A stretch of 56,808 nucleotides of DNA, from contig CAZMIO010000007.1 in NCBI GenBank assembly GCA_964566535.1, positions 1 through 56,808 on the forward strand, read 5' to 3'. The stretch comes from an uncultured Methanosarcinales archaeon. GTDB taxonomy: Archaea > Nanobdellota > Nanobdellia > Woesearchaeales > CAZOXR01. The translations under genes and the position numbers were made by a program. Positions 28,151-37,636 of this stretch are shown here, one piece after another. Each line of letters starts with the position of its first letter. Position 1 is the first letter of the stretch. The notes under the pieces were generated by a model. It saw only the letters and a program-made list of their open reading frames with translations. It made no database searches and was not told the DNA's origin.

Positions 28151-28384
28151 TTATAAGCTTTCCAAAGCTTTTTTCATCAATGGTAGGACTGATTCTACTT
28201 CTTCTTTTATCATCCTTCCTAGTTTAGCAAAGCTCCATTCGCCATTTTGGTTCATGTTTTCTCTTGAAAGCTGAAGTTTTTTCTCGCCTTCATTATAACT
28301 ATAGATTCCAACATGAATCCTTGTTGTTTCGAAGATTGCCGTTTCTTTGAAAATTTCCTTATTTAAATTTGGGTCAAATGCCAT
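28151..28384 (-). CDS. Small conserved hypothetical protein (possible PC4-like ssDNA-binding fold)
   Basis: 77 aa with own TATA and SD GGTGA; beta-rich followed by a C-terminal helix (YSYNEGEKKLQLSRE...FAKLGRM). Confidence 0.7.
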   Translation of the reverse strand: MAFDPNLNKEIFKETAIFETTRIHVGIYSYNEGEKKLQLSRENMNQNGEWSFAKLGRMIKEEVESVLPLMKKALESL

Positions 28385-28478
28385 TATATCACCATTAACT
28401 AAGAAGTAAGGTTTGTTTTTTAAAAGTTTGCATTAGAATAATTAGAAAAAAATAAAAAATTGGTTTAATTTGTTTAGT

Positions 28479-28499
28479 TTAGCAACATCCGTCTCCCAT
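28479..28499 (-). CDS. Candidate 6-aa micro-peptide MGDGCC
   Basis: ATG GGA GAC GGA TGT TGC TAA; SD GGAGGT 6 nt upstream; TATA TTTTTATAT at ~28543-28551; U-rich tract downstream. Confidence 0.55.
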   Translation of the reverse strand: MGDGCC

Positions 28500-28575
28500 T
28501 TTGGTACCTCCTAAGCTTATGTTACAGTATGTACCACTGCCCATATAAAAAGGTTTGCACTTTAAGTTATAGGAG

Positions 28576-30060
28576 CTATTGGTTCTTAGGGATTACTATG
28601 GTAAATGTGGTTCCTTTCCCAACTTCAGAGGTTACTTTGATGTCTCCTTTGTGCAGCTTTACTATTTCGTAAGCTATTGTTAATCCTAGGCCAGTACCCC
28701 CTTCTTTTCTTGTCACATGGTGTTCTACCTGGTAGAATTTGTCAAATATCTTGTTTAATTGGTCTTTTGGTATGCCTGCTCCTGTGTCTGCAACCCCGAG
28801 TTCCCATGAATCGTTGATAGAGTTTATTGAGAATGTTATTTTTCCCCCTTTTTCTGTATATTTTATTGCATTTGATAAGAGGTTTATTAGAACTTGCTTG
28901 AACTTTTCAGAATCTACATTAACTTTTAGGTCTTTAGGTATTTCATTCTTTATTTTTATTCCTTTTTGGTCTGCTAATGGGATTGAGGAGTTATTGTTGC
29001 AGAAATCGTAGATATTGAATCTGCTTATGTTTAGTTTTATTTTTTTATCTTCTAATTTTGAAAGATCTAGGATGTCATTGATAAGGTAGGATAGCCTTTT
29101 TGTTTCTCCTTTTATTATGCCGAGTGATTCTTTTTGTTTCTGATTTACTTTTCCTAGTTTATCGTCTTTTAATAGGGAACTGTAAAGGTTTATTGAAGTT
29201 AGAGGTGTTCTTAGTTCATGGGATATTGTGGATACGAATTTATCCTTCATCATACTTAGTTCTTTTTCTTGTTTGTACTTTTGTTCTGAGATTTTTAGTT
29301 TCTTTCTTAGGAATGCTTTGTCTACAAGTTTTAAGTAAATGACTCTAGTGAGCATTAGGACTGCTAAGAGTGGGAATGGATGTTCTGCAACAAATAATTT
29401 AATGTTATTTCCGTTGTAGAAGAGGATGTTGATTAATCTTAAAAATGGTGTTGTAAAGTAAAATATGAAAGCTAAGATTAATGAATATCTATAACGATAT
29501 TTTACTTCAGTGTTTGTTGATAAAGTATTTATTGCGTAAAGGAGCAGAAGTATTTTGATAAATGTGAATAGGAGTCCGGAGATTGAATTTGTTATTATTG
29601 CATTGTTGTTTAGGAAGATGAGTACTTCTGCGATTAAAAATATTTGAAACAGGAAGTAGAGGATTAATGAAGGAGTTATTTGGAAGATAATCTGTTTCTT
29701 TATTGAGATTCCTTTTTTGACTAGGATGGGGAATAGGAATGCATTTATCATAAGAACTAAGGCTACTATTTCAAGTACGTGGCCGATAATTGGGAAGTAA
29801 TATCTATATGTTGTTGGCCCAATTTCCCTGAATAAGACTCCGAACAAGATAACAAATTCGACAATTTTTCCAAATGATAATGCTATGAATGCTATGGTTA
29901 AGTATTTTAGATCTAGTCTTTGGTCTCTTGTGTATTCAGAGACAATCATATAAGTTATTAGTAGGAAAAGTATTAACTCAAAACCCGTCTTGATCAATTC
30001 TCCTTCGAATGTTCCTAAGATAAAGAAGATTCTCCTAATGTTATCAATATCAAGAATCAT
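28576..30060 (-). CDS. Membrane-bound sensor histidine kinase
   Basis: Multi-TM N-terminus; H box SHELRTPL; N box NLLSNAIKY; G boxes DTGAGI and GTGLGL. Confidence 0.95.
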   Translation of the reverse strand: MILDIDNIRRIFFILGTFEGELIKTGFELILFLLITYMIVSEYTRDQRLDLKYLTIAFIALSFGKIVEFVILFGVLFREIGPTTYRYYFPIIGHVLEIVALVLMINAFLFPILVKKGISIKKQIIFQITPSLILYFLFQIFLIAEVLIFLNNNAIITNSISGLLFTFIKILLLLYAINTLSTNTEVKYRYRYSLILAFIFYFTTPFLRLINILFYNGNNIKLFVAEHPFPLLAVLMLTRVIYLKLVDKAFLRKKLKISEQKYKQEKELSMMKDKFVSTISHELRTPLTSINLYSSLLKDDKLGKVNQKQKESLGIIKGETKRLSYLINDILDLSKLEDKKIKLNISRFNIYDFCNNNSSIPLADQKGIKIKNEIPKDLKVNVDSEKFKQVLINLLSNAIKYTEKGGKITFSINSINDSWELGVADTGAGIPKDQLNKIFDKFYQVEHHVTRKEGGTGLGLTIAYEIVKLHKGDIKVTSEVGKGTTFTIVIPKNQ

Positions 30061-34939: not shown

Positions 34940-35734
34940 ATGCAAGGAATATATGAATTATTGGGGAAAATTAAGGAGACAAAACCGTTAGTGCATCACA
35001 TTACAAATTGGGTAACTATTTATGACTGTGCGAATATTGTTCGAGCTGTTGGAGCACTGCCTGTTATGGCTCATGCTAAGGAAGAGGTTGAGGAGATGGC
35101 AGGAATTGCTTCTGCACTTGTTCTGAATATTGGAACTTTGACAACAGAGCTTGTGGATAATATGATCTTAGCTGGAAAGAAGGCTAATGAGAAAGGAATT
35201 CCGGTTGTGTTAGATGCTGTTGGTGTTGGAGCTACTAATTTTCGGAATGATAAATCTGCAGAGATTCTTGAGAAGGTTAAGGTTGATGTGATTAAAGGGA
35301 ACTCTTCTGAGATTGCTAAATTAGCTGGAGAGAATGTTGAGACTAAAGGAGTTGAGGCTGGACGTGTTGAAGCTAATTTGATTGAAGTAGCTAAGAAATT
35401 GGCTAACGAGAAGGATGCAACTGTTGTGATAACTGGCAAAGAAGATATTGTGGCTAACAAAGAATCTGTTTATACAGTTAAGAATGGGCATGATATGATG
35501 GGAAACATTGTAGGAACTGGTTGTATGGTGGCTTCCGTTATTGGTGCTTTTGCTGCTGTTGAACCAGATTATGCAAAAGCTGCTGCTGCTGCGCTTGCTA
35601 GTTTTGGCATTGCAGGAGAGCTTGCTGCTAGAAGATCATCAGGACCTGGAAGTTACAAAGAGTGCTTCTATGATGAGATTTTTAATCTAGATGAACTGTC
35701 CTTGAATGATATGCAAAAGGTTGAGAAAAAATAA
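34940..35734 (+). CDS. thiM: Hydroxyethylthiazole kinase
   Basis: [22 protein letters not shown] and GTGC motifs. Confidence 0.96.
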
Positions 35735-35739
35735 AGAAT

Positions 35740-36390
35740 ATGAGTAGAGATATTCTAGTTTATAGGGGACTGTATTTTGTAACTGATAGAGGGCTTTCTA
35801 GGAAAAGTGTTGTTGAGGATGTTACGTCTGCTATTTCTGCGGGGGTTAAGATAGTCCAGTATAGGGAGAAAGAGCTTGGTTTTGATGAGCAGGTTGGTGA
35901 GGCTAGGGAGTTGAGAAGGGTGACTAAGGAGAAAGGTGTTTTATTGATAATTAATGATGATGTTGAGATTGCGCTGGAGGTTGAGGCTGATGGAGTACAT
36001 ATTGGTCAGGATGATACTTCTTATGCTGAGGCTCGTAAGGTATTGGGTAGTGGGAAGATTATTGGAGTTACCGTTCATAATGTTTCTGAAGCTGTTTTGG
36101 CTGAGAAAATGGGTGCTGATTATTTAGGAGTTAGTCCTATTTTTGATACGACAACTAAGTTAGATGCAGGTAAGGGGTCTGGTGTTGAGTTAATACAAAG
36201 GGTTAAAAAGGCAGTTAGATTGCCAATTATTGCTATAGGTGGAATAAATTATAATAATTTGGAGGAGGTTATGGGGGCTGGTGCTGATGGTGCGGTTGCA
36301 ATGTCAGCGATTATAGCTAAGGATGATGTTAGTGCAGAGTGTAAGAAATTTATTGAGATGATGCAAAATGACAATACTTGGAAAAGCTAA
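35740..36390 (+). CDS. thiE: Thiamine-phosphate synthase
   Basis: QYREK, IINDD, GVHIGQDD, TTTK and AIGGI motifs. Confidence 0.96.
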   Translation: MSRDILVYRGLYFVTDRGLSRKSVVEDVTSAISAGVKIVQYREKELGFDEQVGEARELRRVTKEKGVLLIINDDVEIALEVEADGVHIGQDDTSYAEARKVLGSGKIIGVTVHNVSEAVLAEKMGADYLGVSPIFDTTTKLDAGKGSGVELIQRVKKAVRLPIIAIGGINYNNLEEVMGAGADGAVAMSAIIAKDDVSAECKKFIEMMQNDNTWKS

Positions 36391-37636
36391 GTTCGGGGAA
36401 TTGACTCCTGAGATGGAGGCTGTTGCTAGTGATGAAGGTATTAAAGCAAAGCAATTAGTTAAAGCTATTGGTGAAGGGAGAGTTGTTATTCCTTTGAATA
36501 ATCAACATAGGGGTTTGAAACCAATTGGTATTGGTGAGGGCCTTCGGACTAAGATTAATGCTAATATAGGGTCTTCTCCTACTAAGGCTGATGTAGGCTA
36601 TGAACTTGAGAAACTGAAGGCTGCTGAAGATGCTGGTGCGGATACTATCATGGACCTTAGTACTGGCGGAGATATTGATAACATTCGGAGAGAGATAATT
36701 AAGAATTCTAAGATTCCTGTTGGAACTGTTCCTATCTATCAAGCTATAATTGAGAAGGATAGTGTTGTTGATCTGACTGCCGAGGATATGATAAGAGGTA
36801 TAAAGAAGCATGTTGAGGATGGTGTTGATTTCATTACTATTCATTCTGGTGTTAAGAGAGACTTTACTAAGTTAATTAAGAAAAGATTGATGGGTGTTGT
36901 GAGCAGAGGAGGTTCATTTTTGATGAAGTGGATGGAACATAACAGACAGGAAAATCCACTTTACGAACACTTTGATAAGGTTCTTCATTTAGCTTCCAAG
37001 TATGATGTTACATTGAGCTTAGGAGATGGTCTTCGGCCTGGATGTTTGAAGGATGCAACCGATAAAGCGCAGTTGTCTGAGCTTAAAGTATTAGGGGAAT
37101 TGGCTAAGAAGGCTTTTGATGAGGGTGTTCAAGTTATAGTGGAAGGTCCAGGACATGTTCCAATTGACCAGATAAAGATGAATATTGATCTTCAGAAAAA
37201 AGAATGTAATAATGCTCCGTTTTATGTTTTAGGTCCGTTAGTTACAGATATTGCTCCTGGTTATGACCATATAACTTCAGCTATTGGTGGAGCAATTGCT
37301 GCGTCTGCTGGTGCTGATTACTTATGTTATGTTAGTCCTGCTGAACATTTAGGATTGCCTGATGTTGATGATGTTAAGGTAGGGGTTATTTCTTCTAAGA
37401 TTGCTGCTCATGCTGCAGATATTGCAAAAGGAATTCCTGGTGCAAGGTTTGTTGATGATGAGATGGCAAAGGCTAGGGCTAGGCTTGATTGGGACGAGAT
37501 GTATAGGTTGTCTTTAGATCCTACCACTGCTAAGAAGATTAGGGAGAAGTGTTCTCCTACTGATTCTGAAACATGTTCTATGTGTGATAAATTTTGTTCA
37601 GTTAAAATCAATCAAGAACTGAAAGATGGAAAATAA
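36368..37636 (+). CDS. thiC: Phosphomethylpyrimidine synthase
   Basis: KINANIG, MDLSTGG, SRGGS, EGPGH, GYDH and C-terminal CSMCDKFC motifs. Confidence 0.97.
   Translation: MTILGKAKFGELTPEMEAVASDEGIKAKQLVKAIGEGRVVIPLNNQHRGLKPIGIGEGLRTKINANIGSSPTKADVGYELEKLKAAEDAGADTIMDLSTGGDIDNIRREIIKNSKIPVGTVPIYQAIIEKDSVVDLTAEDMIRGIKKHVEDGVDFITIHSGVKRDFTKLIKKRLMGVVSRGGSFLMKWMEHNRQENPLYEHFDKVLHLASKYDVTLSLGDGLRPGCLKDATDKAQLSELKVLGELAKKAFDEGVQVIVEGPGHVPIDQIKMNIDLQKKECNNAPFYVLGPLVTDIAPGYDHITSAIGGAIAASAGADYLCYVSPAEHLGLPDVDDVKVGVISSKIAAHAADIAKGIPGARFVDDEMAKARARLDWDEMYRLSLDPTTAKKIREKCSPTDSETCSMCDKFCSVKINQELKDGK

Follow-up and report, generated by a model that had tools for sequence, protein, structure and literature searches.

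A 21-nt archaeal gene for the peptide MGDGCC and an unannotated family of Gly-Cys-Cys-ending micro-genes

In a 56,808-nt stretch of archaeal DNA (the window), a 21-nt gene for the hexapeptide MGDGCC proves to be genuine, one of an unannotated family whose members encode 6–11 residues with a Gly-Cys-Cys end and whose expression is predicted from the DNA. The family occurs in tiny archaea of the symbiotic type, mostly next to defense genes for copper, mercury and thiol redox. The preferred reading, to which we give a probability of roughly 0.55, is that the ribosome makes MGDGCC as a peptide with two vicinal thiols that buffers soft metals or redox state in trans; as a gene-encoded thiol, it may stand in for glutathione or represent a minimal metallothionein. 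The family extends the range of conserved, near-minimal genes that escape annotation (21 bp here; 18 bp is given as the smallest known gene in PMC13417212). It also offers a concrete candidate for the small thiol of DPANN archaea; in the text of PMC7278568, the identity of the small thiol is left open for most archaea.

The gene and its surroundings are laid out as follows (window coordinates; the micro-ORF is the short open reading frame itself).

28576..30060, minus strand: sensor histidine kinase (HisKA and HATPase_c), ending 76 nt before the micro-ORF; flank, outside the unit.
28558-28543, minus strand: BRE-TATA promoter of the micro-gene, GCAAACCTTTTTATAT, 11.7 bits with the genome-trained matrix.
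28511-28506, minus strand: Shine-Dalgarno sequence (SD) GGAGGT, 6 nt 5' of the ATG.
28499-28479, minus strand: micro-ORF of 21 nt, ATG GGA GAC GGA TGT TGC TAA, encoding MGDGCC; member of the Gly-Cys-Cys-stop family.
28463..28478, minus strand: A-rich tail ACTAAACAAATTAAAC, common to the paralogue MGCGCG (G000:C3:179771-179791).
28459-28444, minus strand: U-tract TTTTTTATTTTTTTCT, a likely terminator by the T-run criterion (at least 11 T in 14 nt).
28431-28417, minus strand: separate promoter of the 77-aa gene, GCAAACTTTTAAAAA, 10.4 bits, 47 nt 5' of its ATG; it ends the micro-gene unit.
28151..28384, minus strand: gene for a 77-aa protein with a weak PC4-like lead; flank, outside the unit.

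The first-pass annotation had proposed a complete, stand-alone micro-gene at 28440..28560. Its promoter, SD, reading frame and U-tract, together with the next gene's own promoter, were each found base for base where it had placed them, and the proposal is supported, with selection acting on the peptide across the family (see below). The window corresponds to contig C7 of genome G000 (1.45 Mb, 35% GC, 91% complete), which probably belongs to a Woesearchaeota-type DPANN archaeon, judging from the labels of other records with the family and from the Atlas taxa of the neighboring gene. The BRE-TATA matrix was trained on 570 upstream regions of G000; it misses about 40% of true promoters. Because its maximum lies 36–38 nt 5' of the ATG across these regions, most G000 mRNAs are probably leaderless. 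The micro-gene promoter lies 58 nt 5' of the ATG, and its score was equalled by none of 570 shuffled regions. From the same spacing, transcription is predicted to start at about 28521, giving an RNA that would run to the U-tract near 28445, for which no fold is predicted (z +1.27); Rfam returned nothing relevant at the micro-gene. DNA of G000 occurs in marine metagenome runs, and contigs of runs X12 and X18, from two independent studies, span the micro-ORF with 0 differences, which rules out an assembly error; runs X13 and X17 yielded no contig across it.

Short frames ending in Cys-Cys are not rare: G000 contains 241, a number that favors a chance ORF in an intergenic gap, and nearly all of them lie inside genes or have no SD. 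The 127.6 kb of intergenic DNA contain two GGAGG-led ORFs of 3–11 codons with at least two Cys, MGDGCC and MGCGCG, against a chance mean of 0.07 and never 2 in 60 order-3 Markov simulations. We searched the 401 genomes of the window's order with the pattern GAGG-spacer-ATG-N(0-24)-GGN TGY TGY stop and read the frames of 131 rows by eye, finding 30 in-frame copies outside genes in 26 of the genomes and in 18 of 136 families. An all-genome scan returned at least 119 loci; among the matches listed, 17 of the 21 with archaeal labels were in frame and 15 of these were free of other ORFs, compared with 5 and 1, respectively, of the 98 with bacterial labels. This family evidence refutes the chance ORF, whose probability we regard as negligible. 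Informative archaeal record labels are Woesearchaeota and Pacearchaeota; several records labeled Methanosarcinales have Woesearchaeota-like neighbors, and that label looks unreliable.

With five duplicates among the genome loci removed and five metagenome loci of the same species left uncounted, the family totals 46 in-frame ORFs in 45 loci. The Gly before Cys-Cys is imposed by the search pattern. The counts refer to a single motif and are minimum figures; MGDGDCC (L109), MGDDCCGGDKCEE (L100) and MGCGCG fall outside it. One in-frame candidate from an unpublished genome was left out, and genomes flagged as unpublished stand in the denominator of 401 with no claim based on them. Seven in-frame matches inside long ORFs were dropped as chance (L092, L121, L122, L123, L364, L365, L366); a match out of frame (L120) and a eukaryotic-looking, unrelated one (L036) were also left out. 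L113, L119 and L187 share sequence with a further long frame, which makes them less clean copies. The 10 loci from a scan of JGI metagenomes comprise five from the same species, one unrelated locus and four new copies. L028 encodes the identical peptide MGDGCC with other Cys codons, and L029, L033 and L034 encode MGGGCC.

The exact 6-codon pattern occurs, across the 401 genomes, in G000 alone (two copies) apart from one chance match inside a gene, and a CGCG-stop variant was in frame in G000 alone among 6 rows read by eye. An any-xCC pattern, with matches in 358 of the 401 genomes, was rejected as too loose. In IMG/VR, 23 loci found without an SD requirement included no family member, and 105 loci found with one included 5 in frame, a single one of them free of other ORFs; since that locus is unconvincing, no viral copy is confirmed. 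The neighbors of the copies at L028, L033 and L034 are element-like (an HNH endonuclease, an AdoMet decarboxylase and numerous small membrane proteins), joined at L034 by an MVGGC-like gene ending in PPIVGSC; a PHROGs search with 12 proteins of L028 and L034 matched the HNH protein alone. Tandem micro-genes occur at L100 (MGDDCCGGDKCEE then MKGNGGCC) and L109 (MGDGDCC then MCGGCC). We found no description of the family, and no match to six of its peptide strings, in the literature searched, which was largely open-access; small-ORF catalogues could include the 10–11-aa members. The family of near-minimal genes is, we conclude, real and undescribed.

Several features indicate that selection acts at the level of the peptide. 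All copies are 6–11 whole codons long, and orthologous loci differ by whole-codon indels, as in MGRGKDKGCC, MGKGKGCC and MGGGKKGGCC, all before the same glutaredoxin gene. Synonymous positions vary (TGT/TGC 25/21 and 33/13 at the two Cys codons; TAA 43 and TGA 3 at the stop; Gly codons too). Gly makes up 45% of the variable residues, Lys 35% and Asp 7%, and 1 of 202 is hydrophobic versus 35% in the proteome, a bias that the search pattern does not impose. Two Cys are present in 38 of the 46 peptides, three in 7 and four in 1. The SD is GGAGGT in 22 of the 30 copies from the order's genomes, though GAGG alone was required, and it lies 7–9 nt 5' of the ATG in 39/46, a spacing that the patterns partly limit. 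The shortness of the transcript, the strong SD and narrow codon use (GGA in 36/46 at the Gly before Cys-Cys) would also suit a non-coding RNA or ribosome-loading element in which the frame is incidental. That reading is very improbable and largely refuted by the codon evidence (whole-codon indels, synonymous changes, residue-level bias); nor is there an Rfam match or a conserved RNA structure, with a mean folding z of -0.07 and 3 of the 46 copies below -2.

The flanking genes are not part of what is conserved. The 77-aa protein has no Pfam or NCBIfam match; its look-alike cluster in the Atlas (0.92) has PF02229 in 15% of its members. The gene was found in 21 of 61 genomes searched, with homologues in 20 of 60 relatives, and at none of these 20 homologous loci is there a micro-ORF, so conserved synteny with it was rejected. 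A HisKA or HATPase domain is likewise absent from the 123 neighbor proteins of the other copies. Two roles that the first-pass annotation had suggested, signaling to the neighboring histidine kinase and control of read-through into the 77-aa gene, fail because synteny with both genes is not conserved; the 77-aa gene, moreover, has its own promoter. The micro-ORF is kept instead as a family at other loci. Two further observations concern the window. The predicted start site of the 77-aa gene overlaps a leaderless frame of 3 codons, MVI, at 28395. On the plus strand, 34940-37636 holds the thiamine genes thiM-thiE-thiC (thiE identified by inspection), which are not usual in a DPANN genome of reduced size; there is no TPP riboswitch at the Rfam gathering score.

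The second copy in G000, MGCGCG (C3:179771-179791), is flanked by DUF1858 and AhpC genes inside a 27-kb metal and redox island. The tail CTAAACAAA..TTAAAC..TTTTT has 2 occurrences in the 1.45-Mb genome, each right after a 6-codon ORF. Stop-codon read-through was rejected, as the post-stop frames differ between the two paralogues. The island (G000:C3:158000-184902; L249, L022) contains genes for FTR1, ArsR, a Cu/Zn permease-like protein, a DsbD-like protein, TlpA, AhpC, ferritin, desulfoferrodoxin and a rhodanese-like protein ending in FGC, as well as three membrane-anchored proteins ending in LP(G/Q)MVGGC, a protein family with no NCBIfam match. Tails of the MVGGC type, similar to the ends of the micro-peptides, close larger proteins in the family's islands.

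Such company is typical of the family. A metal or thiol-redox gene lies within 1.5 kb of 28 of the 46 copies versus 2 of 49 control loci of the same order, by leave-one-out with probes that are proteins from the family loci. The Fisher p value of about 1e-9 overstates the enrichment because of this origin of the probes and because kin are not independent; 2.9% of G000 positions have such a neighbor. Pfam domains among the 123 neighbors include HMA/P1B ATPases, DUF302, DUF2933, DUF5676, cupredoxins and ArsR, together with AhpC, glutaredoxin, rubrerythrin, thioredoxin-reductase-like proteins, MsrA/B, ferritin and nitroreductase; CopA-type ATPases and MerA are also found, and there is no Cys-biosynthesis gene and no histidine kinase. 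Metal-gene neighbors accompany 14/23 of the Lys/Arg-rich peptides versus 1/23 of the other class. The copy at L166 directly follows MerA (above the curated cut-off), 44 nt 3' of the gene for this enzyme, which ends in MACCVE, and at L225/L362 the copy stands between arsR and acr3-arsC. The order at L362:1108-2650, which holds the sole bacterial member among the matches listed, is arsR, MDCCGGGCC, acr3, arsC. No metal or redox gene occurs within 1.5 kb of 14 of the 46 copies, several of them at short loci, and the window's copy has no such neighbor.

An unnamed 45–48-aa ORF with the motif CxKGKCFE (L022:5532-5678) comes right after DUF1858 in all six loci seen. When 326 genomes of the class were searched with the 48-aa ORF as anchor, 2 new loci were found, neither with a micro-ORF, and the micro-gene therefore appears to be an optional, mobile member of these clusters. 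Among the functions raised in the first-pass annotation, a thiol or metal-chelating peptide is the one that the neighborhoods of the family favor.

Under the dithiol-peptide reading, the mRNA of about 75 nt would be translated at a high rate and the initiator Met removed, as expected with Gly at position 2, to leave GDGCC. The vicinal thiols of the free peptide would bind Cu(I), Hg(II) or As(III) and/or cycle between dithiol and disulfide with glutaredoxin- or thioredoxin-reductase-like enzymes, and metals and oxidants would thereby be buffered in a cell where no glutathione ligase was found. A GshA-type ligase (PF04107 GCS2, PF04262 Glu_cys_ligase) was not found in 91%-complete G000, which has glutaredoxin-, TrxR- and AhpC-like genes; nor was an HMA domain found there, and one P-type ATPase is present. 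Family members share a build in which a flexible linker of Gly, Lys and Asp carries Cys-Cys at the C-terminus; this build would come in Lys-rich versions assigned to metal operons and in Gly/Asp versions, MGDGCC included, assigned to redox clusters or standing alone.

Action in trans is suggested by where the copies lie. The orthologous copies at L099 and L100, whose upstream proteins are 56% identical, precede a convergent gene; in 6 of 46 cases, the window's copy included, the next gene has its own promoter; 13 of 46 copies are inside operons, at most 21 nt from the upstream same-strand gene; copies occur in tandem at L100 and L109; and those at L028, L033 and L034 are set among unrelated, element-like genes. 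Against the dithiol reading, an unmodified 5-mer would be expected to degrade fast. The lack of a metal or redox neighbor at the window's copy and at the 14 copies counted above, the two neighbor-anchored loci with no micro-ORF and the failure to find an HMA domain in G000 weigh in the same direction.

A cis-acting sensor ORF accounts for some of the same data. Here scarce Cys-tRNA, or metal on the nascent Cys-Cys at the stop codon, would pause the ribosome and alter U-tract termination or re-initiation, tuning stress genes downstream; the window's copy would be an orphan or tune the 77-aa gene. In archaea, termination may be coupled to the ribosome. A U-tract (at least 11 T in 14 nt, within 55 nt of the stop) follows 28 of the 46 copies compared with 10.5% of 552 ordinary G000 genes. 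In 21 of 46, it is followed by a same-strand gene without a detected promoter, which fits attenuation equally well and so weighs against the dithiol peptide. Family copies often stand directly before glutaredoxin, AhpC or CopA, and mycobacterial attenuators work with two consecutive Cys codons (10.1101/834739). However, a sensor would have nothing to regulate at L099 and L100, and the downstream gene has its own promoter at the six loci already counted. The U-tract is absent from 18/46 copies, and orthologous loci may have it or lack it with no change at the end of the peptide. Some copies without it run directly up to the following start codon, a position at which pausing would have the opposite effect. 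The lack of conserved RNA structure noted above (that of the window's copy included) and of any Cys-biosynthesis gene among the neighbors scanned also speaks against it. The trans-acting peptide ranks above the cis sensor because the family does not match known attenuator design. We consider the cis reading somewhat unlikely; if true, it would provide an archaeal Cys- or metal-sensing ORF.

Likely Cys sensors in the same genome look different. The first-pass annotation had counted MGDGCC as the second Cys-Cys-terminated micro-ORF in the window; the other is most likely MKQTFKSCCC, which looks real, is leaderless and without an SD, and lies before tRNA-Cys. The relevant features are as follows.

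34860-34846, minus strand: promoter of the MKQTFKSCCC ORF, 12.8 bits, 37 nt 5' of the ATG.
34823-34791, minus strand: MKQTFKSCCC ORF, leaderless, starting at the predicted transcription start; a different class from the Gly-Cys-Cys family.
34765-34690, minus strand: tRNA-Cys, followed by cysS (CysRS).
G000:C3:141890 (L371:8890-6910), minus strand: leaderless ORF MREEIKKETSIFSLSRCCCMCC, promoter of 15.2 bits.

The order is thus MKQTFKSCCC, U-tract, tRNA-Cys and cysS. In 10 of 12 other tRNAs listed by ARAGORN the promoter is 37–40 nt upstream, compared with 95 nt for tRNA-Cys, and the short ORF is a candidate for Cys-sensing control of this tRNA. The 419 G000 ATGs in leaderless position include those of two short ORFs with a run of Cys at the end, MKQTFKSCCC and MREEIKKETSIFSLSRCCCMCC. 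Downstream of the latter are a 19-codon ORF, DUF2061, cysK and cysE; this leader has the appearance of a polycysteine attenuator that controls cysteine synthesis in an archaeon. G000 would thus also carry apparent polycysteine attenuator leaders before cysK-cysE and tRNA-Cys, and their presence makes Cys-codon sensing plausible in the lineage. These likely sensors are leaderless and combine ordinary residues with a run of at least three Cys. CCC occurs in 0 of 46 family members, a further point against the cis reading. Citrate synthase-, isocitrate dehydrogenase- and aconitase-like genes (by inspection) lie just past cysE, at G000:C3 ~133300-139000 (L371).

A precursor of a RiPP or of a C-terminally lipidated peptide, with the enzyme encoded elsewhere, is improbable. 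A polybasic-plus-CC end resembles the Rab prenylation motifs; a search for protein prenyltransferase PF00432 does not discriminate, with no match in G000 or in any of 14 control genomes. The size is near that of biarylitide precursors (5 aa, 18 bp; PMC13417212), and bufferins, which are Cys-derived copper chelators, are RiPPs (PMC12452194). The RiPP precursor that the first-pass annotation had listed among its options nevertheless fares poorly: the 123 neighbors share no tailoring enzyme (one radical SAM gene was seen, at one locus only), the MNIO family was not found in G000, and there is no division into leader and core, the N-terminal part varying freely.

Returning to the dithiol peptide, a broader version would hold for Woesearchaeota-type archaea at large: a ribosomal thiol buffer encoded by a 21–33-nt gene, in which a free Gly-Cys-Cys peptide would replace both glutathione and metallothionein, be recycled by glutaredoxin or thioredoxin reductase, occur as a Lys-rich form for metals and a Gly/Asp form for redox, and travel as a cassette between genomes and mobile elements. 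We put this forward tentatively, at less than even odds.

Comparison with known systems helps to place the family. Mycobacterial polycysteine leaderless sORF attenuators (Canestrari et al., 10.1101/834739) likewise have consecutive Cys codons at the 3' end, often with operon genes downstream. As described there, they are leaderless, first in the transcript and located at cysteine-metabolism loci, one acting through a duplex that sequesters the ribosome-binding site; in the text of that report, the duplex is not claimed for all loci. The Gly-Cys-Cys genes, in contrast, are SD-led, lie anywhere in an operon or alone, are structureless and have metal and redox neighbors. At least two consecutive Cys codons are present in 46/46, by construction of the search, and a leaderless first position, a cysteine-metabolism operon and a switchable duplex are all lacking; MKQTFKSCCC and MREEIKKETSIFSLSRCCCMCC fit the mycobacterial model far better. 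The copper-sensing leader CutF of Rhodobacter (PMC9973294) is similar in being a small Cys-containing ORF upstream of metal-homeostasis genes, but the export, signal peptide, Pro-rich stalling motif and mRNA stem-loop described for it in that source have no counterpart in the family. The biarylitide precursor gene bytA (PMC13417212) is also near-minimal and missed by annotation (18 bp, versus 21 bp for the MGDGCC gene). Unlike bytA, the family is free of aromatic residues, and its genes have neither a P450 next to them nor another tailoring enzyme in common.

The bacterial metallothioneins SmtA and MymT have about 50 residues. Like them, the family is gene-encoded, Cys-based and without aromatic residues, has Gly/Lys/Asp linkers and occurs near ArsR-type regulators and metal efflux genes; MymT is a Cu(I)-sequestering protein (PMC11672702). 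Unlike them, its peptides have 6–11 residues, which is too short for a lone metal-thiolate cluster, and mostly two Cys, too few for CxC/CxxC arrays that would fold a multi-metal cluster. Glutathione, gamma-glutamylcysteine and phytochelatins (PMC7278568) resemble the family in size and in their likely role as small Cys/Gly thiols for redox and soft-metal buffering. The family also has a glutathione-like context, beside glutaredoxin and disulfide reductases. Glutathione and phytochelatins, however, are made by ligases with gamma-peptide bonds, whereas the Gly-Cys-Cys peptides would be ribosomal alpha-peptides with two adjacent thiols, made from an SD-led ORF. The family most likely works like a minimal metallothionein or glutathione substitute, yet belongs to neither class. 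C-terminal arms with a vicinal Cys-Cys are present in MerA and in large thioredoxin reductases, and the family resembles these arms in presenting Gly-Cys-Cys on a flexible tether, here predicted to be a free peptide rather than part of an enzyme.
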